Shown: positions 77 through 47,762, counted from the first letter of the stretch. The stretch is DNA of 64,000 nt from a virus (IMGVR_UViG_3300036832_000855:1-64000), one strand, 5' to 3'. Notes: a model not told the origin generated them from the letters alone. Program-made: numbers and translations.

Positions 77-124
77 CGGAACTCCTCTCGGTCGGGAACT
101 GGAAGGCTCTCGCCCTCCACCCAT

Positions 125-145
125 AGGATAGCACATGACGTGCGC
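125..145 (-). promoter_or_regulatory. Phage promoter motif GCGCAcgtcaTGTGC-TATCCT
   Basis: Matches the recurrent GCGCAYGAYGTGTGC-TANNNT motif seen about 17 times in intergenic DNA. Confidence 0.7.
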
Positions 146-269
146 TACCGCAAGGAGGTCCGTGTTCGCGATGGGAGTCTGCGCTTCCATGCTCCCCAGG
201 CATCTCGTACCCGGGTGATCCGGCGTGCGCGTTCTCGGCCGGAAGCTTAGACCCGGCGTCAAGCCAGCG

Positions 270-488
270 TCAGCTCTCGCCGTTCGCCCATGGCGGTGGC
301 GCCAGCTCCTCGCCGGTCGCAAGCTCGTCGCTGAAGTAGAGCTGGCGGCAGAACAGCGGGTCGACGCGCTGCGCGATCTGCAGCGTGATCGCGAAGCAGA
401 TCCGGAACCGGTCGACGTCCTTCGCATAGGCGGGGATCTGCGCCGGATCGGGCTCGAACTCGGGCGGGATGACGTACGGCTCGGTCAT
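270..488 (-). CDS. hypothetical protein
   Basis: 72-aa ORF coupled (ATGA) to the upstream gene. Confidence 0.7.
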   Translation of the reverse strand: MTEPYVIPPEFEPDPAQIPAYAKDVDRFRICFAITLQIAQRVDPLFCRQLYFSDELATGEELAPPPWANGES

Positions 489-694
489 GTCGCCATGTAC
501 GTGCGGCCCTTGCGCGAGTGCCGGGCCGGTGGGTAGTACGCGTCGGATGCGACGGCGCCGAACTGCTCCAGGCGCTTCAGCGCGCCTCGCACGCTCGTCT
601 CCGACAGGCCGGTGCTCTCGGCAATCTCCGCCGCGGTGACGGGGCCCATCTCGCGCACCTCGCCCAGCACCGCCTCGATCGTCTCCGGGTTCAT
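485..694 (-). CDS. winged-HTH DNA-binding protein
   Basis: GPVTAAEIAESTGLSETSVRGALKRLEQFGAV, a typical wHTH. Confidence 0.8.
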   Translation of the reverse strand: MNPETIEAVLGEVREMGPVTAAEIAESTGLSETSVRGALKRLEQFGAVASDAYYPPARHSRKGRTYMAT

Positions 695-1065
695 GCGGCG
701 TTCTCGTCCGGCTGGACCACCGCGCGGATCTCGCGCCCGGGGATCGTCTCCAGCGCGTACACCGGCGCGTCAGTCAGCTTCGCACAGCCGCGGCACAGCC
801 GGACTGTGGCGATCGCGCGCTCCAGCGGGTCGGTGATGCCCTGCTCGTCAAAGATGTGCTCGGCCAGCGGGACCATCTCGGCCTCAGGGACACCCGCGAG
901 CTTGTGCAGCGCAATCGCCAGCCAGGCGAGTTCGCCCTTGACCACGAACCCGCGCTTCGTCTCGGGCTTCCAGCAGCGGATGCACGGCTCGTGCAGCTCG
1001 TGGTCGGGTATGCGGCCCAGCTCACCCATCGGGTTGCGTCTGCGCCGACGTCTTGAGTTGCTCAT
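691..1065 (-). CDS. hypothetical Zn-binding protein
   Basis: CIRC...CRGC; RBS motif CGACCGAGGAG at 1071-1081. Confidence 0.7.
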   Translation of the reverse strand: MSNSRRRRRRNPMGELGRIPDHELHEPCIRCWKPETKRGFVVKGELAWLAIALHKLAGVPEAEMVPLAEHIFDEQGITDPLERAIATVRLCRGCAKLTDAPVYALETIPGREIRAVVQPDENAA

Positions 1066-1197
1066 CGGGTCTCCTCGGTCGATTGTCCAGGCGGCGGCCG
1101 CGTGAGGTCGGAGGGGTGGGAGTCCCTGCGAGGTGCATGCGCCATTGCGGGTGCTCGTTCCTCGCGTGTCGCGCGACCGCCGCTACTGGTCCCTCAC

Positions 1198-3883: not shown

Positions 3884-4188
3884 TTGCCTTCCTGGACTTC
3901 CTGTTCGTACGCGCGCGCGCGCGCCGGTGGCCGCCAGGTGTCTCGCCAGTGGCGCCGCCAGCCGCAGTGTCGGCAGCGTCCCTGCCGGATGAGTGTGCGC
4001 TCGCATTTGGGGCACAGCTCGACGGGTTGCTCGGGGAGGTCTCGGTTGGCGAGCGGGACGGCGAGGTATTCGGCGAGCGCCTGTTCGACGATGGCGGTGA
4101 GGGTGCGGTCTTCCTTCTCGGCGTATTTGACGAGCCGGTCGTACAGGCCGGGGTGGAGATGCCAGTGGGCGGGGCGCTTCTGTCTCAC
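3868..4188 (-). CDS. ribbon-helix-helix DNA-binding protein with C-terminal Zn ribbon
   Basis: HLHPGLYDRLVKYAEKEDRTLTAIVEQALAEYL (RHH-like) plus CPKC...CRHC. Confidence 0.7.
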   Translation of the reverse strand: MRQKRPAHWHLHPGLYDRLVKYAEKEDRTLTAIVEQALAEYLAVPLANRDLPEQPVELCPKCERTLIRQGRCRHCGWRRHWRDTWRPPARARAYEQEVQEGKWAKR

Positions 4189-4373
4189 TGCGTCAGGCGG
4201 AGGATCTCGTCGATCCGGTCCTGGAGGGCGCGGAGCACGTGGACGCTGCGCGCGTTGATGTGGCCGTAGTCGCCGTTCGAGGCGATCTCGGGCAGTTCGG
4301 CTCGGAGCTGGCGGAGGTTCAGGTCGTCGGGGTTGGGGCGGATCTCGGTGATCGTTGGTCGGATCGTTGGCAT
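4185..4373 (-). CDS. hypothetical protein (MPTIRPT...)
   Basis: Exact CCGACCGAGGAG at 4380-4391, 6 nt before ATG. Confidence 0.7.
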   Translation of the reverse strand: MPTIRPTITEIRPNPDDLNLRQLRAELPEIASNGDYGHINARSVHVLRALQDRIDEILRLTQ

Positions 4374-4404
4374 GGCGTTCTCCTCGGTCGGTAGGGTTTG
4401 CGCG

Positions 4405-8068: not shown

Positions 8069-10711
8069 TCAGACGACCCGGTCCAGCGCGTACCAGAGCT
8101 TCTCGCCGCTCGGGCTCGTCGCAACCTCCACCCAGCCACCCGTGCCGCTGCCCTCATCCGGCCTCAGTCCGGTCACGAAGCCTTCGAGCAAGCCCCCATC
8201 CGCCAGCCGAACCTGCACCCGATCATGGCGCTGGATCGTCTGTCCCGCCTTGGTGACCAGGCTTGAGATCTCGGTCTCGATGTCCGACAGGTCGGGCCGG
8301 ACGATCGGCTCGAACTCCTGCGTGGCCGAGAGACCGGGTGAGGGCAGCGCGGCGCCCAGGTCGGTGACGTTCGGTCGCCTGATCTGCGCCAGCCGGATGA
8401 TCTCCGCGTACTGCTGCTCCGGGGTCATCTGGAACTTCATCATGCGGAGCTGCTGGCGCCGCTGCCCGTCGTCCAGGCCCGCGTCGTCCATGAGCTTCTT
8501 GAGCTGCGTGCGGTAGTCGAAGTAAGTGCCCGTGACGTTGTAGTCGTCCGGGTTGCGCTTCACCGCTTCGAGCACGTCGGTCATGCCGTAGGAGCGCAGC
8601 CAGTCGGCGACCTCCAGGTGCGCGGTCTCCTCGGTGAGTCCCTCCTCGACGTTCTTGCCCAGCCCCTGGTAGTTCCTGGAAGTGATGCCGCCGTCCACGC
8701 CGACGCCGTGGTTGATCTCGTGCTGCAGGATCTCCAGGTCGTTGTAGAACCTCAGGTGATCCCGGTCGCTCTGGGACACGCCGGGGTTCGCGGCAGCGTA
8801 CGCGCGGCCTGACAGGTAGTGCTCGATGTCGTCGAGGTAGCGCTTCTCGATCGAGATGGTGCCGTTCCACTCGTGGACGGCGGCGGCGCCGTCGTTGACG
8901 ATGTCGTGGACGACAGCCGCCACATTGACGCCGGTGCCGTACTTCTGGCCCAGCTCGTCGGCACGGCCGAGCGTGTCGACTAGCAGCTCGTCGAGGTTCT
9001 TCGGGGCCTGGCCCTCCGGTAGCCGGGTGCGCCTGCCGCCTTGCGGGTTCGGCGTGATCTGCACCGCGATCACACCTCCGCGCTTCTGCTCCTCCGTCAG
9101 CCGCCGGTCGTCGCGTGGCCCCTCGATCACCTTCTCGTCCGGTTTGGACAGGTGCAGGTTGCCGCCCCAGTCGACGTTGTACCGGTTGCCGTCCTCGCCC
9201 TGCAAGATGGCCCACAGGCCCTCGGGGTGATTCGACGTCACCTCGCGACCAACCCAGTTGTAGTGCTGGGTCGCCAACCGCTTGACTACTGCGTCACGCC
9301 GCGCTTGCCACGCCGCCGCTGCCGCTGACGATCCAGAGCCAGCGGGGCGCCGGTCGTTCTCCTTCCTGAGGTCGACCACCGCCTGATAGGTGAGGCGATC
9401 GTCGAGCTTCCCGTTGGGGTCCAGCATCTGGTCGACCGCGTCCTCCATCTCCTTGTGCCAGTCCTTCTGCTCCTTCTGGCCCACGATCGTCACGGTCTCG
9501 CCGTGCTTGCCGCGCAGCGTGTCAGTGATGCCGTCCGCCTCGGTGGTGCGCTGGCGGTGTTGCAGCCCGGCGCTCTCCAGCATCGCGGACGCGTCAGCCA
9601 TGCTCTGGTTCCCCAGCGCTCTGCGCAGCGCCTCGCCGTTGGCGCTGGTGACCGCCGATTCGATCGCGGCTACGGCCTCGGCCCGCTTAGCGCGAGCTTG
9701 CTGCACGCGAGCTTCACGCTGGGCGCGCTCAGCCGCGATCTGGGCCTGGCCCTCCTTCCACACGCGCACCTCTTCGGCGCGCATCTCAGGCGTGGCGATC
9801 ATGTGATCCCAGACCATCGACCCGTGGCCCGCGTTCATGACCTCCAGCCCGCCGCCCTTCTTCTGGCGCAGGTGGAGCACGAGCGAGTCGGGTGGCTCGC
9901 CGGGCTCGACGAACTGCTTGTCGAACCGGGTGAAGCCCTCGACGCCGAACGGCAGGCTGCCGGTCGGCAGCTCGTCGCGGTTGAGCGACTTGCTCATCGT
10001 CCAGCCGCTGTCGATCATGTGCAGCGCGTTGACGACCGGCCCAGCGTCATCGCCGGGCTTGATGGAGGAGAACGGGTCGGCGCGCACCTTGGTCATGAAG
10101 CCGTGCCACTCGTCGGGGCTCATCTCCTGCGCGGGCCCGCCGGGTGCCACCGCTGTGCGCGGCGCCTCGACACGGGTCCACTTGCCGTCGCGTAGCTCGA
10201 CGCGGTGCAGACGATCGGGGGGGATCACGTCCTGCGTCAGGACCGCGTGCCCGATGCCCTCGGGGTCCGGCCTGACGGACACGTCGTGCGTGTCGACCTC
10301 CCAGACGTCGTGCAGACTTGGCGCGTACATCTGCTGGACGGCCTCGGGGCTGGTCCACAGGTAGTTGCCGCGCGACTTCATCGGCTTGGTGCCGACGATC
10401 GGCATGCCCCTGGTGCTGTCGATCCCGTGCTTCTCGATCTCCGCGCGCTTGCCCTTCGGCGCGACGTGGAACATCTTGTTGATCCACTTCCCACCGCGCC
10501 CGCGCGGATGAAGCTCTTCGGCGTAGCTCGCCTCCTGCATGCCGCCGAGCACGGCGCGGATGCTGTCCTTCGACTCCTGCGCGATCCGGCGCGAGAAGTC
10601 GCGCATATCGTCGGTCACGCGCGCGTCGCGCTGGCGCTGCTCCTCGGCAGCGTCGCCCTGCTCCTCGGCGCCGATCACGCCGTCGCCCACGGTCAGTGGT
10701 GCCCAGCTCAC
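8069..10711 (-). CDS. polyvalent virion protein: LHPR tag, ART-like domain, zincin metallopeptidase
   Basis: MQEASYAEELHPRGRGGKW; FHVAPKGKRAEIEKHGI...NYLWTSP...VWEVD (ART-like); ILQHEINH...VEEGLTE (HExxH+E). Confidence 0.7.
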   Translation of the reverse strand: MSWAPLTVGDGVIGAEEQGDAAEEQRQRDARVTDDMRDFSRRIAQESKDSIRAVLGGMQEASYAEELHPRGRGGKWINKMFHVAPKGKRAEIEKHGIDSTRGMPIVGTKPMKSRGNYLWTSPEAVQQMYAPSLHDVWEVDTHDVSVRPDPEGIGHAVLTQDVIPPDRLHRVELRDGKWTRVEAPRTAVAPGGPAQEMSPDEWHGFMTKVRADPFSSIKPGDDAGPVVNALHMIDSGWTMSKSLNRDELPTGSLPFGVEGFTRFDKQFVEPGEPPDSLVLHLRQKKGGGLEVMNAGHGSMVWDHMIATPEMRAEEVRVWKEGQAQIAAERAQREARVQQARAKRAEAVAAIESAVTSANGEALRRALGNQSMADASAMLESAGLQHRQRTTEADGITDTLRGKHGETVTIVGQKEQKDWHKEMEDAVDQMLDPNGKLDDRLTYQAVVDLRKENDRRPAGSGSSAAAAAWQARRDAVVKRLATQHYNWVGREVTSNHPEGLWAILQGEDGNRYNVDWGGNLHLSKPDEKVIEGPRDDRRLTEEQKRGGVIAVQITPNPQGGRRTRLPEGQAPKNLDELLVDTLGRADELGQKYGTGVNVAAVVHDIVNDGAAAVHEWNGTISIEKRYLDDIEHYLSGRAYAAANPGVSQSDRDHLRFYNDLEILQHEINHGVGVDGGITSRNYQGLGKNVEEGLTEETAHLEVADWLRSYGMTDVLEAVKRNPDDYNVTGTYFDYRTQLKKLMDDAGLDDGQRRQQLRMMKFQMTPEQQYAEIIRLAQIRRPNVTDLGAALPSPGLSATQEFEPIVRPDLSDIETEISSLVTKAGQTIQRHDRVQVRLADGGLLEGFVTGLRPDEGSGTGGWVEVATSPSGEKLWYALDRVV

Positions 10712-13700
10712 TTCTTGCCCCCCTTCTTCGCCTTCTTGGCCGCCGCTTCCTTACGCGCCAGCTCGTCGCTCAGGTACTTCTGCTGCACCCAGATGACCGC
10801 CTGCGCCTCCTGCGGCAGCCAGCCCATCTCGTGCGCCACCGCAACCACCTGGTCGGCAACCCACTTGTAGCCCGACCCCCCGGCCTTCTCAGCCAGGATA
10901 TCGCCGAGCCCCTCGGCGGTCGTTGCCTTGCCGTACTCCTTCTTGCCGACGGTGCCGAGCGTCGCGCGCCCCATGTGCGCGTCGATCGTGGCGGTCGTCT
11001 CAAGCTGCGGCCACGCCAGGTTGTTGTAGAACGAGCGCGTCTTCGGAGCGTTCAGCACAACGTCCGGGTTCTCGCCGCGCGCGAGCCGCACCGCCTTCTC
11101 GACGGACGTCCCGAGCCCGCCGAGATCGTTGACCGCCAGCAGGTGGTCGACGAGCGCGGGCGCTGGCACGTTCGAGTACGCGCGTGCCGCCTTCAGCGAG
11201 CGGAGCGCGAGATCCAGGTTCGGGTAGTCGATCTCGCCGGTGTCCTTGTCGGTGTGATCCCAGGACAACTGTGGCGACGTCGCCGCGACCATCGCCGCGA
11301 ACGTGGTCGGGTCGACGTTGTTCGCCTTCGCGATCGCCTCGATCTGGTCGTGCGCGGTCTGGTACCAGTGCTGCTGGCGGTCGGCGACGCCGCGATCCTG
11401 CGCGCCCTTGATCAGGGCGCGGAAGCGTTCGCGGACAACCTCCGGGTCGAGCCACTTCTCCGGGGCCTCGCCGCGCTGCGCGACCGGCTCGGGCGTCGGC
11501 GTGAGCCGGTTGAGCGCGTCCTCGTACTTCGGGCGCAGATGCTCCAGCTCGGGCACGAGCCGCCCCAGGTTGTGCTGCAGGTCGGCGCGCTTGACCTCGC
11601 GCGCCAGCTCCCCGGCCGTGCCCTTCGCCGTCGCGATCCGCTCGATGTAGTCGTCGTAGTTCATGTCGTCGCCCGGCGGGCGCGTCAGCAGCTTGATCGC
11701 GTCGAGCATCTCGTCTGCCTGCTCGGGCTTCGTGACCCGGGGCTCGATCAGCGCGGCTCTCAGGTCTTCGGGCGTCAGCTTGGTGTCTTCGAGCGCGTCG
11801 TGGAACAGCGCAACCGGCTTCGCCCGGTCGCTCACCGAATCGGCGACGGCGAGCACATGCTCGATGTACGGCCGCTTCTGCAGGTCGGTCTGGCCCGCGT
11901 GAGCGTTGTTGGCGACGTTGTAGAGCTTGTGCAGCCACCGACCACGCAGGCCGCCGCTCGGGACGTACTCGCCCGCGGCGCGCGCTGACCGACGGGCACC
12001 GCCGGACGGGCGCTCGGGAACGTACTCGCCCGGCTTGCCGGTCGGCTCCCACCCGGCCACGACCTTGCCCAGCTCGGCGGCGGCGTCCTGCGCCTCGGTG
12101 CGCTTCGCCCGTCCCGCCCTGGTGGTGCTGGTGCGCGCAGTCGCGGCGCTCTTGCCCTTCGGCGCCTTGATCTCCTTCAGCACGACCTTCGCGGTGTGCT
12201 CGCGCACCTCGGGCGACTCCTTGGGCAGACGCAGCCGGACGGCTTCGCGGACCATGTCCTGGTAACTCTGCCCTTCGTCCTTCCAGCCGTGCTGCTTCTG
12301 CAGCCAGCGCCCGAGCCGATCTCGCGGGTGCAAGACCTCTTGGTAGATGTTCGCCTCGGCCAGCTCGACCGCCTCCTCGGCGTGCTGGGCCGCCAGGCGC
12401 TCGGCGCGCTGCAGCAGCCACTCCCGCCGGTTCAGGGTCGGGTTGACCACGACCTCGCCTAGTAGCTGGCGGAGCACGGCGCCCATCCGCGGCCCGGGCT
12501 CCATGCCGTTCGCGATCAGGTCGTTGCCGGTCACGTTCAGATCCTTCAGCGAGCGCGGCGCCTCCACGTTCTCGGCCAGCAGCCCGCGCAGCTTGTGCAC
12601 GCCCTCCAGGCTCTTCGCGATCGCGTCGCCGTGGCCTTCCATGTCGGCCTGCTTGTGGTCCAGCAGGTCGGTCAAGAAGCGGTCGGAGTGCAGGGCGCGC
12701 AGGCGGCGGGCCTTGACCGGCGTCGGCTTCTCGACGGCCGTGAGCATGTGCTCGCGGACGAGGCCGGTCACGTGGTTGATCGTGTCCCGCGGGTAGTTCA
12801 GCCGCTCCAGCGTGCTGCGCGCGATGTTGGCGCCGACGTCCTGGTGGTTGCCGTGCTCGGGGTGCGAGTGAAAGCGGAACGTGTCGGCGCCCGGCTTGAG
12901 ATTCGCGGTGGCTGGCTTGCCCGAGTCGTGGAACAGCGCCGCCAGCCGCGCCTCGTAGCTCGCACCCATGCGCGCCAGCTCGTCGACCACCTCGAACGTG
13001 TGCTCGTCGAGCACGTGCTCGTGGTAGGGCGAGCGCTGATCGAAGCCGACCATCGGCGCCAGCTCGGGGAGCAGCGCCTGGAGCATGCCGGTGTCGCGCA
13101 TCACCCGCAGCGCCTTGCCGGGGTCGTCGCCCATCAGCAGCTTGCGCAGCTCGTCCTGGACGGTGCCGGACACGCCCTTGTTGGTGAGCGCGGTCATGCC
13201 ACCGGAGTCGCGGCGCATCAGCGCCAGCGTCTCGGCGTCCGGCTCAAGGTTGTGCTGGGAGATGAACCGCGCGCCGCGAAGCATACGCAGCGGGTCCTCC
13301 TGAAAACTGGTGTCATGGACGACGTGCAGGATGTGGCTGCGCGCGTCCTCGACGCCGCGGCCGGTCGGGTCGGTGATCACGCCCGTCTTCGGGTCGCGGT
13401 ACAGCGCGTTGACGGTGAAGTCCCGGCGCTGCGCGTCGTCGGCGAGCATCTGCTCGGGTGTCGCGTCGCCGCCCAGGCCCGGGTGCGGCACGATCGTGAA
13501 GTCGTGGCGTCCGGCGCCGGTGGACTGCTCGACGCGCGGCGGGACGATCTCGACGCCGCCGGGTGGCAGGTCCGGGTGCGTGGCGCGGACGCCGACGAGC
13601 CGGTCGCGGACCATCAGCGGCTCGGCCTTGCCGCCCGCGTCCTTCACCGCCTGCTGGATGCGCTCCGGGTGCTCGACGGCGACGTAGTCGATGTCCTTCG

Positions 13701-14040
13701 GGGTCTTGCCCAGCAGCTCGTCGCGCGGCGCCCCGCCGACCTCGCGCAGGTGCGCGAGACCCAGCTTCTCCATCCACTTGCCACTCCGATCGCGCGGGTG
13801 AAGCGCCTCGACGTACTTGGGCGGACCGTAGTCCGGCCCGTGGACCATCCGCATGCGCTCCCAGAAGCTCTCGGGCGTGTCCTTGTGCTGGTGCGCCTCC
13901 TGTAGCTCGCCGTTGCCGTTGCTGTCGACGAGCGCCTTGACCCGCTGCCAGAACTCGAAGTCGTCGCCGGGCTCGTCTGGCGCGTCGGACAGGCTCGGCA
14001 TGCCGTCCGAGACGATCGCCGCTGCCGTCGCCCAATCCAT
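10708..14040 (-). CDS. polyvalent protein: CCA-adding/poly(A) polymerase-type NTase + HD; RelA/SpoT-type HD hydrolase; C-terminal HhH-glycosylase-like domain
   Basis: VGGAPRD..DID..RRDFTVNAL..EDPLRMLRGARF; ALFHDSGKP; HAGQ..PYIEH..ALFHDALED; WY..ATSPQ..KTRSFYNNL..TIDAH..QAVIW; start re-called to ATG 14040 (TGATG overlap). Confidence 0.88.
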   Translation of the reverse strand: MDWATAAAIVSDGMPSLSDAPDEPGDDFEFWQRVKALVDSNGNGELQEAHQHKDTPESFWERMRMVHGPDYGPPKYVEALHPRDRSGKWMEKLGLAHLREVGGAPRDELLGKTPKDIDYVAVEHPERIQQAVKDAGGKAEPLMVRDRLVGVRATHPDLPPGGVEIVPPRVEQSTGAGRHDFTIVPHPGLGGDATPEQMLADDAQRRDFTVNALYRDPKTGVITDPTGRGVEDARSHILHVVHDTSFQEDPLRMLRGARFISQHNLEPDAETLALMRRDSGGMTALTNKGVSGTVQDELRKLLMGDDPGKALRVMRDTGMLQALLPELAPMVGFDQRSPYHEHVLDEHTFEVVDELARMGASYEARLAALFHDSGKPATANLKPGADTFRFHSHPEHGNHQDVGANIARSTLERLNYPRDTINHVTGLVREHMLTAVEKPTPVKARRLRALHSDRFLTDLLDHKQADMEGHGDAIAKSLEGVHKLRGLLAENVEAPRSLKDLNVTGNDLIANGMEPGPRMGAVLRQLLGEVVVNPTLNRREWLLQRAERLAAQHAEEAVELAEANIYQEVLHPRDRLGRWLQKQHGWKDEGQSYQDMVREAVRLRLPKESPEVREHTAKVVLKEIKAPKGKSAATARTSTTRAGRAKRTEAQDAAAELGKVVAGWEPTGKPGEYVPERPSGGARRSARAAGEYVPSGGLRGRWLHKLYNVANNAHAGQTDLQKRPYIEHVLAVADSVSDRAKPVALFHDALEDTKLTPEDLRAALIEPRVTKPEQADEMLDAIKLLTRPPGDDMNYDDYIERIATAKGTAGELAREVKRADLQHNLGRLVPELEHLRPKYEDALNRLTPTPEPVAQRGEAPEKWLDPEVVRERFRALIKGAQDRGVADRQQHWYQTAHDQIEAIAKANNVDPTTFAAMVAATSPQLSWDHTDKDTGEIDYPNLDLALRSLKAARAYSNVPAPALVDHLLAVNDLGGLGTSVEKAVRLARGENPDVVLNAPKTRSFYNNLAWPQLETTATIDAHMGRATLGTVGKKEYGKATTAEGLGDILAEKAGGSGYKWVADQVVAVAHEMGWLPQEAQAVIWVQQKYLSDELARKEAAAKKAKKGGKK

Positions 14041-14384
14041 CAGGCGGACTTCCCCCAGTACCCGGCGTCGCCGTCGAACACGGTCGGCGTCGCGCCGTGC
14101 TCCAGCGCCGCCTCCAGCCCGTCGGCCGCCTCCTGCGGCGTCATGTCCTTCGGCGCCCACAGTCCAACGGCGTCAGCGCCGGGCGCGCCGACCACCACGA
14201 ACATCCCGGCGTCAGTCCGGATCGTCCCGTACAGCAGCGGCCAGTCCGGCTCGACCTCGGCCTCTCTCATCGCCACGCCCTTGCTCTCGAACCAGTCCGG
14301 TCCGAGCGGGAGCACGGCCACCTCGCGCATTCCGAAGAACTCGTCCGGCACCGCCGGGCCGTCTCGATCACTTGTCCACTTCAT
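14040..14384 (-). CDS. hypothetical protein (moron-like insert with its own promoter)
   Basis: GAGGAGG RBS and promoter motif at 14426-14446. Confidence 0.7.
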   Translation of the reverse strand: MKWTSDRDGPAVPDEFFGMREVAVLPLGPDWFESKGVAMREAEVEPDWPLLYGTIRTDAGMFVVVGAPGADAVGLWAPKDMTPQEAADGLEAALEHGATPTVFDGDAGYWGKSA

Positions 14385-14425
14385 GACTTCACCTCCTCGG
14401 CCGACTCTGGATATTCCCACCAATA

Positions 14426-14446
14426 ACGATAGCACACATCGTGCGC
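14426..14446 (-). promoter_or_regulatory. Phage promoter motif GCGCACGATGTGTGC-TATCGT
   Basis: Recurrent motif. Confidence 0.7.
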
Positions 14447-14457
14447 CAGCGCAACGT

Positions 14458-24950: not shown

Positions 24951-24955
24951 TCGGT

Positions 24956-26679: not shown

Positions 26680-26894
26680 GCTTCTCCTCGGTCGGTGGCC
26701 TTGGCCTTCCTGGCCCTGGTCTTCTTCGGCGTGAGCGCCGTCACGCGCGCTCGGGCGTCCTCCTCGCTGGGGAACGGCTCGTGGTCCGCCATGCGGGTCG
26801 CGCCGGTCTCGTAGAAGTGGACGACCAAGTGCTGGCGCCCGCGGCGCCCCTTCGGATCGTGGACGTAGGCCACGCTCAGGGTCAGGTCAGGCAT
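26676..26894 (-). CDS. hypothetical protein
   Basis: Start MPDLTLS with AGGAG RBS. Confidence 0.6.
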   Translation of the reverse strand: MPDLTLSVAYVHDPKGRRGRQHLVVHFYETGATRMADHEPFPSEEDARARVTALTPKKTRARKAKATDRGEA

Positions 26895-27117: not shown

Positions 27118-27170
27118 CTTGTCTCCTCGGTCGGGGGGAGTTGCACTCTCATCATAGCACACGTCATGCG

Positions 27171-28415: not shown

Positions 28416-28636
28416 GTCTCCTCCTCGGTCGGTTGCACTACAGAGTTTAGCACACATCTTGCGCTCCAGGCTTCGCGCATCGCGTCCTCGCGCGTGCGCC
28501 CGTCACCGTTGATGTAGCCGAAGTCCGGCCGCTCGACGTAGGCGCGATAGCCGCCGCCCTTGAGCTTGACCACCCAGCCGACGAGTCGGTCGTCGAGCAT
28601 GATCCGGCGGCGGCGGCGGAGGATCGGCTCGGTCAC
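28412..28636 (-). CDS. hypothetical protein
   Basis: Coupled ORF. Confidence 0.55.
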   Translation of the reverse strand: MTEPILRRRRRIMLDDRLVGWVVKLKGGGYRAYVERPDFGYINGDGRTREDAMREAWSARCVLNSVVQPTEEET

Positions 28637-29060: not shown

Positions 29061-29257
29061 CAGGTCTCCTCGGTCGGGTCGACGCCGTTGGCCTTGGCGC
29101 GCTTGAGGCACGCCTTGCACGTCGGAGCATCGGTGGTGGCGACCGCGCCGCTCACGGCGCGGCCCGTGCAGAACAGGATCGTGTACCACCCGGCGCGCCG
29201 GGAGGGCTCACCAAGGTGAACCTTCCCGGTGCCGTAGTTGGTCGCGTACCGCCGCAT
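29060..29257 (-). CDS. small Zn-binding protein
   Basis: KVH...C...CKAC. Confidence 0.6.
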   Translation of the reverse strand: MRRYATNYGTGKVHLGEPSRRAGWYTILFCTGRAVSGAVATTDAPTCKACLKRAKANGVDPTEET

Positions 29258-30053: not shown

Positions 30054-30059
30054 CTTCGT

Positions 30060-30120
30060 CTCCTCGGTCGGTGGGAGCGGGCCTCTCGCCCGCACGTACA
30101 TCATAGCACACATCATGCGT
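30060..30120 (-). promoter_or_regulatory. Promoter (TATGAT), 5' hairpin and CCGACCGAGGAG leader cassette
   Basis: GCGGGC-GAGAG-GCCCGC hairpin. Confidence 0.75.
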
Positions 30121-30470: not shown

Positions 30471-30471
30471 C

Positions 30472-30678: not shown

Positions 30679-30905
30679 TTGGTCTCCTCGGTCGGGGTGG
30701 GTGCGTCGACCAGCTCGACCGGCGTGTCCGGGTGAACGTACCGGTTGACCTGGCGAATGCCGTTGGTGGCGTCGATGCGGACCAGCCGCACCGGACCGTC
30801 GTCGTAGCCGTCGCGGACGAGGACGGTCTCGTACAGCGTGCGGCCGCCAACGATCCGGACCCACTGGTCGCCGTCGTAGCCGATCAGATCGAAGGCGGTG
30901 AGCAT
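30675..30905 (-). CDS. hypothetical protein
   Basis: Coupled start (TGATG). Confidence 0.6.
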   Translation of the reverse strand: MLTAFDLIGYDGDQWVRIVGGRTLYETVLVRDGYDDGPVRLVRIDATNGIRQVNRYVHPDTPVELVDAPTPTEETK

Positions 30906-31162: not shown

Positions 31163-31216
31163 CTCGTCTCCTCGGTCGTGTCGTTACACATGGTAGCACA
31201 TGTCATGCGCTACCGG

Positions 31217-31853: not shown

Positions 31854-31858
31854 CGTGT

Positions 31859-31936
31859 CTCCTCGGTCGGGGGAGTCGCGCCCTCTCCGGGCGCAACTAC
31901 ATTGTACCACATCTGGCGCACGATGTGTGTTACCAT
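31859..31936. promoter_or_regulatory. Back-to-back promoters; minus-strand hairpin + RBS-motif cassette
   Basis: Minus TACAAT (31901-31906) then AGTTGCGCCC-GGAGA-GGGCGCGACT; plus TACCAT (31931-31936). Confidence 0.75.
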
Positions 31937-31942
31937 CCGCGC

Positions 31943-32299
31943 ATGCCAAGCCGCGAACAGCGACGTGCGACGTTCTTCGCCGACAAGTGCTGCGCTCAGT
32001 GCGGCGCCACGAAGAACCTGGAGCTAGACCACGTTGATCCAGCCACCAAAGACCCGAAACTCAAGCGGGCTGCGAGCTGCACGATCTGGGGCTGGAGCGA
32101 GGTTCGCCGCGCGACCGAGCTGGCGAAGTGCCAGGTGCTCTGCCAGCCATGCCACCGAGCCAAGAGCAGTCGGGAGCAGGCGGAGCGCCAACGCGCTCGT
32201 CCAATCGTCCACGGCAGATACACGAGCTACACCGGGCGCCGCTGTCGCTGCGGTCTCTGCAGCGCAGCGATGCGCGCGTACCAGCGAGAGCACCGCTAG
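31943..32299 (+). CDS. HNH endonuclease, leaderless
   Basis: CAQCG..LELDHVDP..KCQVLCQPCHRAK; C-terminal HG...Y...CRC..C. Confidence 0.88.
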   Translation: MPSREQRRATFFADKCCAQCGATKNLELDHVDPATKDPKLKRAASCTIWGWSEVRRATELAKCQVLCQPCHRAKSSREQAERQRARPIVHGRYTSYTGRRCRCGLCSAAMRAYQREHR

Positions 32300-35715: not shown

Positions 35716-36051
35716 TCAGCTCGCCGTTGTCGCCTTCTTGCGCCGCCGCTTCTTGGGCGGGGGCGGCTCCGGTTCGCGACTGCGGCGCCGGTTGCGCTCG
35801 ACCCAGGTGCCCATCCTCTCGATGTCCCTGCGGTACCACACCGGCGTGGCCTGCAAATGTGCCGCCGTCGGCGGCATCAGGCCGCGTTTGATCCAGCGCC
35901 CGATGCGCGGCCGCTCGACGCCCAGCAGCTTCGCGACCTCGGCCGTTCCGACGATGTCGAGTTGCCTGACCGCACGCGGCTGCCTGGGTGGACCGATCGG
36001 TGGCTCAGCCCCGTTTTCCTTGCTCATCCCGCTCCCCTTCGTGGTCGTCAT
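35716..36051 (-). CDS. MerR/AlpA-like HTH DNA-binding protein
   Basis: DIVGTAEVAKLLGVERPRIGRW..P...L.ATPVWYRRDIE; promoter at 36062-36082. Confidence 0.8.
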   Translation of the reverse strand: MTTTKGSGMSKENGAEPPIGPPRQPRAVRQLDIVGTAEVAKLLGVERPRIGRWIKRGLMPPTAAHLQATPVWYRRDIERMGTWVERNRRRSREPEPPPPKKRRRKKATTAS

Positions 36052-36081
36052 TATTCCCTCCAGGGTAGCACACGAAGTGCG

Positions 36082-36366
36082 TTATCGGTCGAGCCGTCGG
36101 CGGATTGCATCGAGCGTCGGGCACACCCACCTACCGGCGGTGCAGCCCGCGCCCATGGCGGCGATCTCAGCACGCGTCGTGCGCACCGTGATTCCGCACC
36201 GGCAGTCGCGCGCGCGGGGCGAGGCCAGCTCCTCGCGAATGATCGTCGCGAGCTTCGAGCTGGCTTCCTTCTGGCGCTTGCGCTCCGCTTCCCGCCGGGC
36301 GCGTTCGAGCTGGCGGTGGCGGGCGCGCGCGGCTTGCTCCTCCGCGCGCGGATCCGCCGCCATCAT
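36082..36366 (-). CDS. hypothetical protein
   Basis: Coupled ORF. Confidence 0.5.
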   Translation of the reverse strand: MMAADPRAEEQAARARHRQLERARREAERKRQKEASSKLATIIREELASPRARDCRCGITVRTTRAEIAAMGAGCTAGRWVCPTLDAIRRRLDR

Positions 36367-36854
36367 GCGGATGCTTCGATCGCCTCGCGAACAGCAACCG
36401 CGAGGTCGAACGTCCACTCCTCTTCGAGTGCCCGCTGCCGGTTGCTCAGCTCCGAGATCTCTCGGCGTAACTGCACCAGCTCGCCGCGGGCCTCCTCCGT
36501 CATGTCGCCGCGGTAAACGGCCGATGCCCGGTATCCGGACGACGGGAGCTGCTCGGTGTCGCCGTCGAAGACCGCGAGCACGTTGCCGGTGCCCGCGTGG
36601 AACCCGGTCGCGGTGCCCCGCTCGAACGACGTGAAGCGGTCCGTCAGCCGGTAGAACGGCACGTTGGTCTTCACCTTGCGCTGCCGGACTTGCGGCTTCG
36701 CCCGCTCGATGGCCTCGCTGAACGTGCCGCTGTTCGCGAGCGCTCGCGCGTCCTCGTCTTCAGCATGCCCGCGCAGGAACACCTCGAAGGTGCCGCCGGT
36801 GCTCACATGGACCTCACACGGCACGGTGAGGATTTCGACTTCTGTCAGTTTCAC
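36363..36854 (-). CDS. hypothetical protein
   Basis: GACCGAGGAG RBS at 36862-36871 and promoter at 36890-36910. Confidence 0.7.
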   Translation of the reverse strand: MKLTEVEILTVPCEVHVSTGGTFEVFLRGHAEDEDARALANSGTFSEAIERAKPQVRQRKVKTNVPFYRLTDRFTSFERGTATGFHAGTGNVLAVFDGDTEQLPSSGYRASAVYRGDMTEEARGELVQLRREISELSNRQRALEEEWTFDLAVAVREAIEASA

Positions 36855-36861: not shown

Positions 36862-36969
36862 CTCCTCGGTCTAGGGGTTGCCGCGAGCGATGATAGCACA
36901 CACGGTGCACACGATGTGTGCTACAATGTAAGTGCGCCCGGAGAAGGCGCGCTCCCCCCGACCGAGGAG
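36862..36969. promoter_or_regulatory. Divergent promoter pair with RBS motifs and a plus-strand 5' hairpin
   Basis: GCACACGATGTGTGC-TACAAT (36907-36927), AGTGCGCC-cggagaa-GGCGCGCT, CCGACCGAGGAG (36958-36969). Confidence 0.8.
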
Positions 36970-36977: not shown

Positions 36978-37637
36978 GTGGAAGTCATCCGGAGAACCAA
37001 CCCGGGTGCCTATCGTCAACCCCGCTGGCACTACGCTGCCGACGCAGAGTCTACACGCACGATGTGCGGTAAGGACGTCGCCGAGATCAAGGGCGATCGT
37101 CGAGGCTCGTGGAACCGGCCGCGGATCGAGCGCAAGGACGAGGCGGACCGCGGCTACAGCGGGATCTGCGCCGTCTGCACGCGCAAGGCGCACGGCGGCG
37201 GCGGCTCGGTGAAGCTCACCGTGGCCGACATGAAGGCGCTCGTCGCACGCGCGGCTGAGGCTGGCGAGAAGGCATACCGGGACGCGATCCCGACCCCGAT
37301 GGTGGTCTACACCCCGAAGAACATGATGGCCTCCCTGATGGGCGGCGATGATGGCGGGGCCGACCCCAACGAGCCGGTGTACAACGTCCCCGAGGGCGTG
37401 TGCGGCACGGCCTGGGTCAACATCAAGCCCGGCGGCTCACGGTTCGCCCGGTTCATCCTGAAGGAAGGGCTGGGCCGGTCCGACAGTTACCGAGGTGGGG
37501 TGAACCTCTCGCCCGCGAAAATCTGCGGCGACAGAGGCTCACAGTCACTCACCCGCTGGGAAGCAGCGGCCCACGCGATCGCGGATGTGCTCCGCGACGG
37601 CGGGATCACCGCCTACAGCGAGTCGTGGATGACATGA
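36978..37637 (+). CDS. conserved phage hypothetical protein
   Basis: GTG after the RBS motif; GVCGTAWVNIKP motif. Confidence 0.7.
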   Translation: MEVIRRTNPGAYRQPRWHYAADAESTRTMCGKDVAEIKGDRRGSWNRPRIERKDEADRGYSGICAVCTRKAHGGGGSVKLTVADMKALVARAAEAGEKAYRDAIPTPMVVYTPKNMMASLMGGDDGGADPNEPVYNVPEGVCGTAWVNIKPGGSRFARFILKEGLGRSDSYRGGVNLSPAKICGDRGSQSLTRWEAAAHAIADVLRDGGITAYSESWMT

Positions 37638-42214: not shown

Positions 42215-42469
42215 ATGAGCGCAGTGTCCGGTCGCCCCAACGCCGACCTTCTCCAAGCGAGGGTCGCCGCCAACATCCGCCTCGCGCGAGATCGTCTCAA
42301 GCTGAGCCAGCGCCAGTTCGCGCGCTTGCTCGACATCGACCCGATCCAGGTCAGCCGGTGGGAGCGCGGACTCAACACCCCGAACACGGCCAACATCATC
42401 GCGATCGCCGCTGCGGTCGACGTCGACCCGGCCTGGTTCTACGCCGAGCACGACACCGACGTCACCTAG
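42215..42469 (+). CDS. XRE-family HTH regulator (cI/Cro-like), leaderless
   Basis: NIRLARDRLKLSQRQFARLLDIDPIQVSRWERGLNTP; TATCCT 7 nt before ATG. Confidence 0.9.
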   Translation: MSAVSGRPNADLLQARVAANIRLARDRLKLSQRQFARLLDIDPIQVSRWERGLNTPNTANIIAIAAAVDVDPAWFYAEHDTDVT

Positions 42470-42515
42470 CGCACAACGCGTGCTATCCTCAGTCGAAATC
42501 GACCGAGGAGTACCG

Positions 42516-42800
42516 ATGGATAAGCAGTCACCGCGCCAGCGCAACCACCGCCTGGTCACCCACAACGTCCCGCTGACCTGGCAGGGGCCAGGCGACGTCC
42601 ACGACACCATGGAGCGCGACATCTGGCGCGAGCTGGGCAAGGCGATCATCGACGTAGACGAACAGCTTGCGGAGCTGGCCGGATGGCACAGCACCGAGGT
42701 GAGCCGACTCATCCGGAAGGTGAACCGGCTGCGCGAGATGGCCGACAAGGCGTACGAGTGGCACGCGGGAAGGCCCGTACCGACCAAGGAGGCGTCGTGA
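42516..42800 (+). CDS. hypothetical protein
   Basis: Promoter 42469-42489 and CGACCGAGGAG 42500-42510. Confidence 0.7.
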   Translation: MDKQSPRQRNHRLVTHNVPLTWQGPGDVHDTMERDIWRELGKAIIDVDEQLAELAGWHSTEVSRLIRKVNRLREMADKAYEWHAGRPVPTKEAS

Positions 42801-42994
42801 CCGTCAACGCATCGAGCAGCCATGGCGACCGCTGGGTCGAAGTCGAGACTGAGGACCAGTGGGTGTATCTCCGGATCTACAAGAACGCAGATGACCGCGA
42901 ATACGAGCTGATCTTCGATACGACGCAGGCGCTCGCCCTGAGTGCCGAGCTGGACCTGGTGATCGCGGCGGCCGCGCCCGAGGAGCACCAATGA
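42797..42994 (+). CDS. hypothetical protein
   Basis: GTGA coupling with AAGGAGG. Confidence 0.65.
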   Translation: MTVNASSSHGDRWVEVETEDQWVYLRIYKNADDREYELIFDTTQALALSAELDLVIAAAAPEEHQ

Positions 42995-44676: not shown

Positions 44677-44990
44677 GGGCCTGCCTCCTCTATCCGAGGG
44701 AGAGTTCGGAGCAGGGCTGGGCTCTAGTCGCGGCCAGAAACCGCAACCGGCCTTCCATCCGATGGAGCCGTCCGTCGACATGGGAGGGCCAATCGAGCTA
44801 GGCGGCTGGTGGGTAGTCCCGCCCTGCGCTCTCCTGAGTTAGTCCCCCTCGGCGCGACCCGAGAGGCCACCAGTCCCCCTTGCTGTCGCCCTGAGGGGGT
44901 ATGGGCGTCCGCGCCCGGGCCTACACTGGAGCCTCTTCTTGGTGGAAGACCTTGGGCCCCGGTTGGCGCCGGGGCTCGCCTATTTCAGGG

Positions 44991-46805
44991 CTAGTCACCG
45001 GCGGTCAGCAGCTCATCTTGCAAGCGGTAGATGTTGTCGGCCTTCCGGCGCGCCTGCTCCTTGTAGATCCCGTAGCCGCCGAGCTTCTTGAGCGTGTTCT
45101 CCAGGGCGCCCGCGGTGACGTCGTGGCCCGCACGGTGCAGCGCGTTCTTGATCTGCCCGTACGTCGCGAACCCGCCGGACGAGTCGCGGATCAGCTCGTA
45201 CACGAACTGGCGCCGATCGAAGCTCGGGGTCGGCTCGATGTCGACCAGTTTCTCCGACTGCGTCTCGGGCTGGAGTGCGTAGCCGGTGATCCGGCTGAAG
45301 TTCACGTTCCAGTGCGAGCCGACGGGCCGGTGGCCCTGCTCGGCGACCTCGCCTTCGCGGTCCTTCCACAGGTGCAGCCACGATCGGCTCTGCGACTTGC
45401 GCTCGATCCCGAGCAGCATCTCGGCGCCCCACTGCCAGGCGGATGAGCCGAACAGGTCGTGGACCGTGAGCGGCTGATCGTCGCGCGCCTTGCGGCAGTG
45501 CATCGGCAGCAGCAGGCTGAAGCCGTAGCGCTCGCGCCAGTCGTCGAACCGGCGCATCAACTCGACGGCCGCTTGCGTGTCGTTCGGGTCGCCGCGCGTG
45601 AGCTTGTACAGCGGGTCGAGCGCGACGATGTCGTAGTGCCCGTCGTAGAAGATCCGCTCCATCCGCTCGATCGCCTCCTTGTCCGAGTCGAGCGCGAGCC
45701 CGTCCGGCACCTGGAGGTACTTGACGCGGTCGCTGTCCTGTAGGCCGACCTCGCGGATCCGGCGCTTGACGGTCCGGCGGCCCTGCTCGACGTCGACCAC
45801 GAGCGCACGGAGATCGCCGCGGCCCTCCCAGTTCAGGAACGGTCGGCCGTAGCAGGCGGCGGCCGTCATGTGCAGCACAAACGTCGTCTTGCCGTGGCCG
45901 GTCCAGCCTCCGACCACGATCCGGTGGCCCTTGTAGATCAGCGGGCCGAGCAGATAGCCCTCGGTGTCGGGGTCGGGGAGCTGCATGAACTCGCGGGCGC
46001 TCAGCACCTGCATGCGCTCGGGCTCGACCACGACCTGGTTGTCCGGGTCGACGTCGACCAGGGTCTTGAGTCCGTACCCAGCGGCGACGTGGTCGGTGAC
46101 GTCCTTGCCGACGGCGGGCTGGCGCACGATCACCTTGGCGGCGACACCCTTGAGCGCCTGGTAGACAGCGTGCGCGTGCTCCTGGCCGGGCCGGTGGCCG
46201 GTCTTCGGGTCGACCGGGTCGACGTCCTGGATGATCAGCACGTTGGCGCCGCGGAGCGTCTCGGTGTACTCGTCCCGCCACTTCCCGGCGCCGCCGGGGC
46301 AGGTCGTCGCCACCTTGCCCTTGCCCTCCAGGGTGTGGACATCCCTCTCGCCCTCGACGAGGCAGACCAGCTCACGGGCCTTGACCGCCTCGATCACCTT
46401 CGGCAGCCGGTAGAGGACGCGCCGGACGTCCTGGATCCCCCACTCGCCGTTCGGTCGGCGCTGGCGGAAGTCCTTCGGGCTGAAGCGGACCACCTGGAAC
46501 AGCGGCTTGCCGTCCTCGTCGGTGTAGTCGTAGCTCGCGACCTCGACCCGGTCGGTCGGCTGCTCCTCCAGCTCGAACAGCTCGCGGACGTCGAGGCCGA
46601 GCGCACGGGCGAGCTGGTCAAGCGTGCATCCGGCGTGGCAGAACACGAGCGCCCGGCCGTCGTCGCCCTGGTCGAGCTTGAAGCTCGGGTCGCGGTCGTC
46701 ATGCGCCGGGCACTTGGCCGTCCAGCCGTGCTGCTCGCTGCCGCGGGCGTTGCAGTCGAGCGCCCACAGTCGGGACAGCACCTTCTCTACCGCCTCAGAC
46801 GGCAT
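44991..46805 (-). CDS. DNA primase-helicase (Zn-binding + TOPRIM + RepA/AAA_25-type helicase)
   Basis: CPAHDDRDPS..CHAGC; LVEGERD..DVD; GWTGHGKT Walker A; VALDPL; HCRK. Confidence 0.9.
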   Translation of the reverse strand: MPSEAVEKVLSRLWALDCNARGSEQHGWTAKCPAHDDRDPSFKLDQGDDGRALVFCHAGCTLDQLARALGLDVRELFELEEQPTDRVEVASYDYTDEDGKPLFQVVRFSPKDFRQRRPNGEWGIQDVRRVLYRLPKVIEAVKARELVCLVEGERDVHTLEGKGKVATTCPGGAGKWRDEYTETLRGANVLIIQDVDPVDPKTGHRPGQEHAHAVYQALKGVAAKVIVRQPAVGKDVTDHVAAGYGLKTLVDVDPDNQVVVEPERMQVLSAREFMQLPDPDTEGYLLGPLIYKGHRIVVGGWTGHGKTTFVLHMTAAACYGRPFLNWEGRGDLRALVVDVEQGRRTVKRRIREVGLQDSDRVKYLQVPDGLALDSDKEAIERMERIFYDGHYDIVALDPLYKLTRGDPNDTQAAVELMRRFDDWRERYGFSLLLPMHCRKARDDQPLTVHDLFGSSAWQWGAEMLLGIERKSQSRSWLHLWKDREGEVAEQGHRPVGSHWNVNFSRITGYALQPETQSEKLVDIEPTPSFDRRQFVYELIRDSSGGFATYGQIKNALHRAGHDVTAGALENTLKKLGGYGIYKEQARRKADNIYRLQDELLTAGD

Positions 46806-46923
46806 GAGACCTCCACGCGGACGGACGAGACCGAGCACACGATGTGCGCTCCGATCGGCAGACGGCTCACGTTACACGCGGCCACGGGCCGAGGCAAGCC
46901 GAAAGATGCCGCAGTTTGCGGGT

Positions 46924-47268
46924 TCAGTCCAGCGGAGCGGCTGACAAGACCTGCGCGAAGTGTCGGCGCTCGGTGCCGACGCGGAACCCTCGATCCTTGA
47001 TCGGCGGGAACGCCACGTACTCGACCTCCAGCTCCAGCACTACCTTGATCCGGTCGCCCTCAGCGAACTGCCCCTGCACCGCCATCGGCGGCACCGGCGC
47101 CAGCTTCAACGTCGAGTCCGACAGGTCGTATTCCGAGCCCAGGTCGAAACTGAGCTGCTCCGCCGTGCCCACGATCGGGGAACCCAGCACCGCCACGTCC
47201 ATGTCTTCCAGCGACTCTTTCTCGCCCTGCTCGTCGACTACCTGGCCGTTGCTTTGCTGCTTCGCCAT
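46924..47268 (-). CDS. hypothetical protein (MAKQQSN...)
   Basis: AAGGAG RBS. Confidence 0.65.
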   Translation of the reverse strand: MAKQQSNGQVVDEQGEKESLEDMDVAVLGSPIVGTAEQLSFDLGSEYDLSDSTLKLAPVPPMAVQGQFAEGDRIKVVLELEVEYVAFPPIKDRGFRVGTERRHFAQVLSAAPLD

Positions 47269-47635
47269 CGTGTTCTCCTTGGGGATCAGGGTGCGGTGTG
47301 TGTCCCGTCGATGGCGCCGGGTAGTAGCGAGCGATCCACCAGTCGAGCCCCAGCTCGTTGATGAACTCCCAGTTCTCCGCGGTGAGCAACGTGCGTGGCA
47401 TACGCCGGAAAGCGCTCGTGTGCCGCGCGTGGCATCGCTCACAAAGTGCGATACCGCTGCGGGGATCCCAGACGAGGGTGCCGGGATCTAGACGGCGCTC
47501 GCGCTCGACGCGCTCAAGCCTCGCCTGCGTGATCACGTGATGACCCTGGACGCGCACTCTCCCCTTGCACACGACGCAGGGTTTGGGGGGTCGGCCGACT
47601 ACCTTCCGGTGCCACGCCCGAGCCGGATCTTTCAT
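47060..47635 (-). CDS. HNH-like endonuclease
   Basis: CVVC...HHVI...IALCERCHARH; the 3' part overlaps the next gene. Confidence 0.7.
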   Translation of the reverse strand: MKDPARAWHRKVVGRPPKPCVVCKGRVRVQGHHVITQARLERVERERRLDPGTLVWDPRSGIALCERCHARHTSAFRRMPRTLLTAENWEFINELGLDWWIARYYPAPSTGHTPHPDPQGEHDGEAAKQRPGSRRAGRERVAGRHGRGGAGFPDRGHGGAAQFRPGLGIRPVGLDVEAGAGAADGGAGAVR

Positions 47636-47762
47636 GGAGCGGGCGAGGACGGTCGGGACACGGACGGCACTCTACGCTCGATCTGAGACGTGTTGGTACT
47701 TCGATTCAGATGACGTCCGATCCACCTGCTTGCATCCCTCCTCCCGACCGAGGAGACACCAC

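Follow-up and report, generated by a model that had tools for sequence, protein, structure and literature searches.

Results

A repeated 12-mer and a gene-less copy between RecT and the tail-fibre genes

The 64,000-nucleotide stretch IMGVR_UViG_3300036832_000855:1-64000, which was analysed in full and is called the window, comprises bases 1-64000 of the 122,419-bp genome of an uncultured phage and contains 13 exact copies of the 12-mer CCGACCGAGGAG, referred to below as the tag. Twelve of these copies precede genes, and the thirteenth lies without a gene in the gap at 49900-50060 between the convergent RecT and tail-fibre genes, in which two hairpins are predicted. An earlier note on this DNA had listed the twelve as marks of a regulon of accessory genes, to be recognised either by a small RNA from this gap or by a translational regulator protein. 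All twelve positions were found to hold an exact copy on the strand given, and the thirteenth had been handled there as part of the small RNA. The variants it had listed also proved real: those at 1071, 31168 and 42499 differ from the tag at one position and those at 14393 and 36862 at two, the one placed at 82 is an insertion variant at 84-95, and those at 23606 and 35466 carry indels. The gap with its surroundings, and the copies of the tag, are as follows (nt, nucleotides; aa, amino acids; ORF, open reading frame; gene assignments are from Pfam and PHROG scans of 206 newly called ORFs).

The gap and its flanks
47763-48971, plus strand: PD-(D/E)XK exonuclease gene (RecE-like)
48964-49899, plus strand: RecT gene
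49941..49968, minus strand: terminator hairpin, GC-rich, then U-rich tail
49971..50021, minus strand: hairpin 1 of the candidate antisense RNA; covarying stem, 15 invariant apical bases
49990..50001, plus strand: orphan exact tag, no gene; its minus strand is the tag antisense, at the apex of hairpin 1
50028..50035, minus strand: -10-like box TGTATCCT, followed after 6 nt by the base of hairpin 1
50061 onward, minus strand: tail-fibre and baseplate genes

Exact tags before genes
4380..4391, minus strand: ATG 6 nt on; gene 4185-4373, 62 aa
24956..24967, minus strand: promoter-proximal, 5' GC hairpin; gene 24621-24950, 109 aa
26487..26498, minus strand: within upstream ORF end (TDRGEA); gene 26051-26482
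26684..26695, minus strand: within upstream ORF end (TDRGEA); gene 26479-26679
27123..27134, minus strand: promoter-proximal; gene 26887-27117
28421..28432, minus strand: promoter inside upstream ORF end (PTEEET); gene 28125-28415
29066..29077, minus strand: within upstream ORF end (PTEET); gene 28818-29060
30060..30071, minus strand: promoter-proximal, 5' hairpin; GTG 6 nt on, 55-aa ORF
30684..30695, minus strand: within upstream ORF end (PTEETK); gene 30472-30678
31859..31870, minus strand: promoter-proximal, 5' hairpin; gene 31617-31853
36958..36969, plus strand: promoter-proximal, 5' hairpin; gene 36978-37637, 219 aa
47744..47755, plus strand: before the exonuclease gene 47763-48971

Variant tags
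1071..1082, minus strand: one mismatch, TCGACCGAGGAG; gene 691-1065
31168..31179, minus strand: one mismatch, ACGACCGAGGAG; promoter-proximal; gene 30905-31162
42499..42510, plus strand: one mismatch; promoter-proximal; gene 42516-42800
42780..42791, plus strand: one mismatch, CCGACCAAGGAG; gene 42797-42994
14393..14404, minus strand: two mismatches; behind a family promoter (see below); gene 14040-14384
36862..36873, minus strand: two mismatches; behind a family promoter; gene 36363-36854
84-95: insertion variant
23606 and 35466: indel variants

The 13 copies in the window compare with 0.09 expected (no more than 1 copy in any of 100 shuffles), and when up to two mismatches are allowed the count is 55, where 22.2 would be expected. 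With 22 exact copies, the tag is the commonest 12-mer of the whole genome; an Actinomycetes metagenome-assembled genome (MAG) of 2.2 Mb and similar composition holds 5. Nineteen of the 22 have an ATG or GTG 4-8 nt downstream that opens an ORF of at least 47 codons with a third-position G+C content (GC3) of at least 0.80. The remaining three are the orphan at 49990 (plus strand), a copy at 103494 (minus strand) within the gene of a 929-aa protein, and one at 114185 (minus strand) at a gene end, after which no start follows. The 929-aa protein (genome 102204-104993; L003 207-2993, minus strand) has a Zeta_toxin-type kinase domain, and the copy at 103494 is in frame within it.

The 3' half of the tag, GAGGAG, is a Shine-Dalgarno site; the 5' half is CCGACC. 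The 16S rRNA of the uncultured Actinomycetes MAG, which may differ from that of the true host, ends in CACCTCCTTTCT and pairs with GAGGAG only. As CCGACC lies outside this pairing, the 5' half would need another partner. In nine cases an exact copy falls within the last codons of the ORF upstream, two reading frames being used, and the only sequence these overlapping copies have in common is the 12-mer itself. The overlap forces the C-termini of the upstream proteins, as had been noticed before, to read PTEE[T/E/K/S].. in seven cases and TDRGEA in two. Read in frame 0, the tag encodes Pro-Thr-Glu-Glu (codons CCG, ACC, GAG and GAG), and the phage carries tRNA genes for Glu(CTC) and Thr(AGT) (L002 15272-15346 and 15934-16017; genome ~98.3-99.0 kb) that decode the Glu and Thr codons; this match is probably a coincidence of codons that are common in high-GC genes.

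Among the tagged genes are those of the RecE-like exonuclease and of two proteins of 605 and 333 aa, and the SSB gene has a tag with one mismatch; for such a set "accessory genes" was an overstatement. By the ORF calls for the genome, no exact or one-mismatch tag stands in front of the terminase, portal, lysozyme or tail genes, and to this extent the absence that had been asserted holds; an exact copy at genome 83804 leads an operon that reaches into the capsid genes. The depletion before structural genes is statistically weak, with exact tags at 1 of 34 structural-block genes and 17 of 172 genes elsewhere (Fisher p = 0.32), the p value reaching 0.02 with up to two mismatches (1 of 34 against 32 of 172).

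The orphan copy lies in a unit organised like a small RNA gene

The minus-strand order runs from the tail-fibre stop codon (50061-50063) through the -10-like box, six bases, hairpin 1 and the terminator to the U-rich tail. The antisense in hairpin 1 is an exact 12-nt complement of 19 start regions, extending to 13 nt where the base preceding the tag (base -1) is C. The terminator, a GC-rich hairpin of 12 bp with a U-rich minus-strand tail, was present in all 8 sequences folded; being palindromic, it could serve as a plus-strand terminator for RecT as well. No Rfam family matched at gathering threshold in the window, and the matches at 49800-50200 were at chance level, that to CcsR1 scoring 15.6 bits against a cut-off of 65.3. 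RNAduplex comparison of the apex with all 206 start regions gave energies that were not bimodal in this GC-rich genome and was not used as evidence, and comparing the minimum free energies of the hairpin and of free windows on the two strands gave no clean answer as to the strand. The arrangement supports the view that the element at ~49936-50035 is built as a small RNA gene would be and bears an exact antisense of the tag.

Tag and hairpin unit are conserved among relatives

A terminase search of IMG/VR identified 24 related loci, at 75-90% protein identity, and 23 of them contain the exact 12-mer, with up to 11 copies in 21 kb; two more relatives, at 69% terminase identity, carry the same 12-mer. 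Counted over the genome and 33 related loci (start-associated meaning here an ORF of at least 40 codons with GC3 >0.8), there are 120 distinct exact copies. Ninety-six are start-associated, at a spacing of 4-9 nt (mode 5), and ATG is used at 85 of these. The base -1 is never G in the 96 copies and is C in 55. Where a start-associated copy has a single mismatch in positions 1-7 (29 copies), this falls on position 1 in 21, on position 2 in 3 and on position 7 in 5, and never on positions 3-6. Because the tag overlaps upstream ORFs in two frames and is invariant among relatives whose terminases are only 69-90% identical, the earlier view that it is under selection at the nucleotide level is supported.

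RecT was then a means of fetching relatives without selection for the motif. In all seven loci fetched in this way an exact copy lies downstream of RecT, flanked by inverted repeats and with the terminator hairpin before it, and the terminator is invariably placed between the RecT side and hairpin 1. Four of the seven have extra DNA between RecT and the terminator, and in most relatives the hairpin unit adjoins the tail-fibre stop codon; as it stays by that stop codon despite insertions on the RecT side, it travels with the minus-strand unit. A pattern scan gave four further instances, and three of four large related records contain the unit, with an exact orphan copy (by model or blastn).

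An alignment of eight sequences has a mean column identity of 63% but shows no variation at all over an apical run of 15 bases; these include three to four loop bases beside the 12-mer, of which the targets share none beyond position -1. All eight fold as hairpin 1 plus terminator on the minus strand (z-scores -2.7 to -6.1), and the stem arms, which largely differ in sequence between relatives, still pair. The outer stem shows 3-4 canonical pair types at each of its 12 pairs, with 8-12 of 12 sequences paired, in a covariance-model alignment, which was fitted to the model and is thereby biased towards structure. RNAalifold on a plain MAFFT alignment missed the outer stem, the arms being too divergent, and per-sequence folds and the covariance model were used. 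A TATCCT, TATGCT or TAAGCT box with TG upstream is present in 10 of 11 relatives aligned, 6-7 nt (where counted) before the hairpin base. The candidate small RNA that the earlier note had placed at 49940-50021 as a possible partner of the tag thus gains support from its anatomy, from the exact antisense and from conservation with compensating stem changes, its strand being left unsettled by the folds.

A promoter family precedes a subset of the tags

When the 90 nt upstream of every copy of the tag were printed, a second repeated element was found. This resembles a sigma-70 promoter, with a TTG-type -35 (TTGnnn) and TAGCGCAC..TGTGCTAnnnT. The spacer of this promoter family is 17 nt, roughly TAGCGCAC-GAYG-TG, and a near-palindrome; the extended -10 is TGCTAnnnT. 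Scanning for the extended -10 gave 28 matches; the spacer is conserved at 22 of these, and three pairs overlap divergently. For 11 of the 19 exact copies that precede a start, a family promoter stands no more than 60 nt away, and in 8 of these 11 leaders a GC-rich hairpin at the predicted 5' end of the mRNA is followed by the tag. About four leaders have CUCC just upstream, which could pair with GGAG of the tag.

Family promoters
36889..36927, plus strand: example, with extended -10 TGCTACAAT, TTG-type -35 position and near-palindromic spacer
36890-36898, minus strand: -10 of the divergent twin that overlaps the preceding promoter
31901..31936, both strands: overlapping divergent pair, -10 at 31901-31909 (minus) and 31928-31936 (plus)
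Sites: 125-133, 1198-1206, 14426-14434, 24998-25006, 27151-27159, 28444-28452
Sites, continued: 30100-30108, 31190-31198, 31901-31936, 36062-36070, 36890-36927, 42481-42489
Outside the window: 12 more sites

The near-palindromic spacer has the look of an operator that is integral to the promoter and to which a dimeric regulator would bind; the small helix-turn-helix proteins encoded at 485-694, 35716-36051 and 42215-42469 are candidates for this role.

Comparison with start-associated sequences of other phages

Start-associated sequences (SAS) were described in 2011 for the Cluster K mycobacteriophages (PMC3203893), and papers of 2024 and 2025 still call their function undefined (PMC11373665, PMC12699233). 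In Cluster K, ATG is the start codon at 80 of 93 sites (PMC3203893), and each K1 phage has one site of opposite orientation without a gene (Pope et al., PMC3203893). Extended start-associated sequences (ESAS), which are SigA-like promoters with a 15-bp inverted repeat, lie upstream of some SAS genes (PMC11373665), and the same SAS consensus is found across the Cluster K subclusters in the 2025 survey (PMC12699233). The SAS of Microbacterium Cluster EF is a 13-nt ribosome-site motif in ten copies (Jacobs-Sera et al. 2020, PMC7302621), each of which has, like many tags here, a conserved upstream element, and its function is likewise called unknown. We found no literature linking SAS to antisense RNA, in Cluster K mycobacteriophages or elsewhere, in a search of the texts of papers: the 2025 survey (PMC12699233) lacks the words antisense, hairpin, reverse and opposite, and the SAS papers leave function open and do not treat the reverse copy as an RNA.

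The tag resembles the Cluster K SAS in being an asymmetric motif of 12-13 nt with an AGGAG core, repeated many times per genome (11-19 copies in Cluster K) and placed shortly before starts (3-9 nt in Cluster K), in its strong preference for ATG, perhaps in a confinement to non-structural genes and in conservation beyond the 16S pairing, in the SigA-like inverted-repeat promoter before a subset of copies and in the single gene-less reverse copy. It differs in sequence, CCGACCGAGGAG being unrelated to GGGATAGGAGCCC, and in its carriers, which are uncultured myovirus-like phages without a nucleotide match to phage records. In addition, Cluster K SAS lie in gaps of >50 bp, whereas many copies of the tag lie inside upstream ORFs. 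Judged by sequence, the tag functions like an SAS but is an independent, new sequence family and no homologue of the Cluster K or EF SAS.

The gene-less reverse copy of two K1 phages was found in a setting similar to that of the orphan. The single reverse SAS of Anaya and Adephagia departs from the consensus at one position and is located at the top of a strong hairpin (z-scores -3.6 and -6.3), in an apical loop of 10 nt, within a non-coding gap of 385-430 bp near the right end; in Adephagia, late transcription appears to start in this gap (PMC11373665). Conserved counterparts of the hairpin region occur in 124 mycobacteriophage records, and a mirror hairpin of this kind, with the SAS complement in its loop, was seen in Cluster K1 and K5-like phages, SgtBeansprout keeping the core. 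In the right-end gap of both K1 phages the anti-SAS hairpin is closely preceded by another hairpin, which is very strong (Anaya L162 39803-39843; Adephagia L163 3613-3653) and follows a conserved TTTTAGACT box, possibly a late -10; Pixie retains this box and the preceding hairpin, the anti-SAS hairpin being absent.

Phage antisense RNAs that cover a ribosome site include sar of P22 and c4 of P1/P7. These are, like the candidate described here, small structured RNAs whose loop pairs with a phage translation-start region, but they have one or two linked targets, whereas a single RNA would here address ~20-30 dispersed genes. The 6C RNA of Actinobacteria and CcsR1 of Rhodobacter are small RNAs with C/U-rich anti-Shine-Dalgarno loops. 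In these, similarly, the loop mimics the anti-Shine-Dalgarno of 16S rRNA and pairs with the ribosome sites of many mRNAs; the present element matches neither in sequence or model, and its specificity would reside in 6-7 nt that extend beyond the Shine-Dalgarno site. The stoperators of the Cluster A mycobacteriophages (PMC3203893), which are 13 bp long, resemble the tag in being asymmetric, numerous and uniformly oriented with respect to transcription, but they act on transcription and their spacing to start codons is not fixed.

Genome, gene content and probable host

The G+C content of the window is 64-71% (in 2-kb windows). The first 127 nt of the genome are repeated as its last 127 nt (window 1-127 and genome 122293-122419), which reflects an overlap in the assembly or else a short terminal repeat; the tag at the far end of the genome and the variant at 84-95 are consequently one site. 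Baseplate J, sheath initiator, tube and sheath proteins were found in the Pfam and PHROG scans, which identifies a contractile-tail phage. Landmarks from these scans are:

18459-20483, minus strand: portal
32302-34065, minus strand: large terminase, gpA-type
44991-46805, minus strand: primase/helicase

Directly downstream of the portal, 8069-18420 (minus strand) is occupied by three huge consecutive ORFs of 880, 1110 and 1320 aa. In the 1110-aa ORF, HD domains and DUF7178 accompany a CCA-adding/poly(A)-polymerase head; the 1320-aa ORF has a weak GNAT match, and the 880-aa ORF matched no family.

No nucleotide match to a phage was found among 50,697 phage records, and the best cultured terminase matches are SPO1-like, at <30% identity. 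Several of the Pfam families are of the DUF6xxx type, which we take to be built largely on Streptomyces proteins, and a search of 185,579 species genomes with the terminase gave a sole match, 40% identical, in the uncultured Actinomycetes MAG. On these two grounds the host is probably an actinobacterium. The contig with the 40% match was considered as a relative with another tag and rejected, being chromosomal, with MITE-like repeats (miniature inverted-repeat elements) and no enrichment of the tag. This contig (G005:C4, L176-L181) carries inverted pairs of a ~40-nt repeat, the copies lying ~170-210 bp apart (for example 16393/16560, 51883/52093 and 91596/91763); the repeats open with a Shine-Dalgarno-like sequence, resemble miniature inverted-repeat elements and are unrelated to the phage tag.

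Discussion

Our reading of these observations, which in our judgement could go either way, is that an anti-SAS RNA of ~85 nt pairs with the tagged ribosome sites. CCGACC would be a private tag, marking between ~19 (exact) and 30 (with variants) non-structural mRNAs, and the hairpin apex is put forward as its partner because this is the sole other conserved place of the tag sequence. We infer that the RNA would be produced from the minus strand, from ~50021 to 49936, directly downstream of the tail-fibre gene, and that it would come from its own -10 box, from the 3' end of the late tail-fibre transcript, or from both, with a timing that would presumably be late. Hairpin 1 would display the exact complement of the tag and the second hairpin would act as terminator. 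Pairing over 12-13 nt would then cover the ribosome site of every tagged start, and the effect would be repression: translation of the tagged genes would be lowered as a group, and untagged structural genes and host messages would be spared. That such control recurs in actinobacterial phages, one late RNA silencing early or non-structural genes at translation and so explaining part of the SAS, those of the K1 phages Anaya and Adephagia included, is a tentative extension that we hold to be possible though doubtful.

Several observations weigh against this antisense RNA. Part of the antisense is predicted to be held in an apical mini-stem of 4 bp, which leaves a loop of 5 nt. In the clade of the window the -10 box is without the canonical TGn extension, and a conserved -35 was not apparent. 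Folding leaves the strand undecided, the signal from base pairs being split: in the relatives L035 and L039 a single A-C mismatch of the minus-strand fold would be a G-U pair on the plus strand, whereas in L037, L038 and L041 there are G-U pairs that only the minus strand can form. The fourth of the large related records, 86% complete, is without the RecT junction and the hairpin. No relative with an altered tag was found in the viral scan with a terminase alignment, which reached down to 69% identity, in the genome scan or in the metagenome scan, the last of which returned the same contigs and two fragments of <4 kb. Beyond this family, the homologous loop in Hammy and Unicorn has drifted and is C/U-rich, with ~8 of 10 positions complementary; no mirror copy was found in Pixie (K3, whole genome) or in ZoeJ (K2, bases 10000-57315), nor, at up to two mismatches, in AnnaSerena (EF), in which the sole 9-nt SAS complement lies within a terminator stem. 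It follows from these phages that SAS function in general needs no such RNA. The orphan antisense copy inside a hairpin that the earlier note had proposed to look for in other phages with SAS is therefore present in K1 and K5-like phages and was not found in Pixie, the part of ZoeJ examined and AnnaSerena, and the note's suggestion of a general explanation went too far; the mirror hairpin is a recurrent, not a universal, companion of SAS.

The 12-mer might instead be recognised on the mRNA by a phage or host protein or by the ribosome, hairpin 1 (49971-50021) being a second structured site, which we regard as rather unlikely. A plus-strand transcript of the hairpin would in that case be a decoy or an autoregulatory site, comparable to CsrA/CsrB. 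The strict invariance of positions 2-6 and the exclusion of G at base -1 are as compatible with a protein footprint as with pairing, and the invariant loop bases beside the 12-mer that the targets do not share beyond position -1, the existence of SAS systems without any mirror copy and the plus-strand G-U pairs of L035 and L039 also favour it. On the plus strand, however, the terminator precedes hairpin 1, which could then be reached by read-through only, and it is the minus strand that has the conserved -10-like box and the U-rich tail and that links the element to the tail-fibre stop codon. Moreover, one copy would make a poor sponge, and no RNA-binding family was recognised when 205 ORFs were compared with Pfam. 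We think it highly improbable that the tag acts at the DNA level, as an asymmetric operator through which a phage repressor blocks transcription in the manner of the Cluster A stoperators. The asymmetry of the motif, its single orientation relative to transcription, its many copies per genome and the several helix-turn-helix proteins encoded by the phage would suit such an operator, but the fixed spacing of 4-9 nt to the start and the embedded Shine-Dalgarno core indicate translation, the family promoters already have an operator-like near-palindromic spacer of their own, and the variable, covarying stems of the orphan suggest a folded single strand rather than a duplex site.

It is also conceivable, if improbable, that no trans-acting factor is involved and that the 12-mer is an optimised leader and ribosome-site module that spread with its promoter through duplication and is kept uniform by recombination; the tag may then double as a linker for cassette exchange via the exonuclease and RecT. 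The proximity of 11 of the 19 start-associated exact copies to a family promoter is in keeping with this, as is the organisation of the small-gene cassettes at 24-32 kb, which are reordered between relatives and in which many homology blocks end 0-10 nt from a copy of the tag. The excess of such block ends is nevertheless modest, with 2.9 per tagged start against 1.9 per untagged start (1.5-fold). The copies within upstream ORFs have nothing but the 12-mer in common, and the orphan, with its invariant loop and changing stems in 12 relatives, would be left unexplained. When the block of small genes at 22000-32000, between terminase and portal, was compared with L005, L007, L011 and L018, the cassettes were seen to be reordered, with homology stopping at gene starts.

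For the study of SAS, this phage family provides a clean case, in which the tag is exact and the only gene-less copy conserved across relatives is the apex of a hairpin-plus-terminator unit. The same geometry occurs in K1 phages of Mycobacterium smegmatis mc2155, which can be engineered, so that the idea of an antisense RNA is directly testable and a question open since 2011 becomes a direct experiment. If the idea is true, the tag would also be an aid to annotation, in that it fixes the true start codons of small genes, and a single RNA would serve as a phage-wide post-transcriptional switch for dozens of genes.

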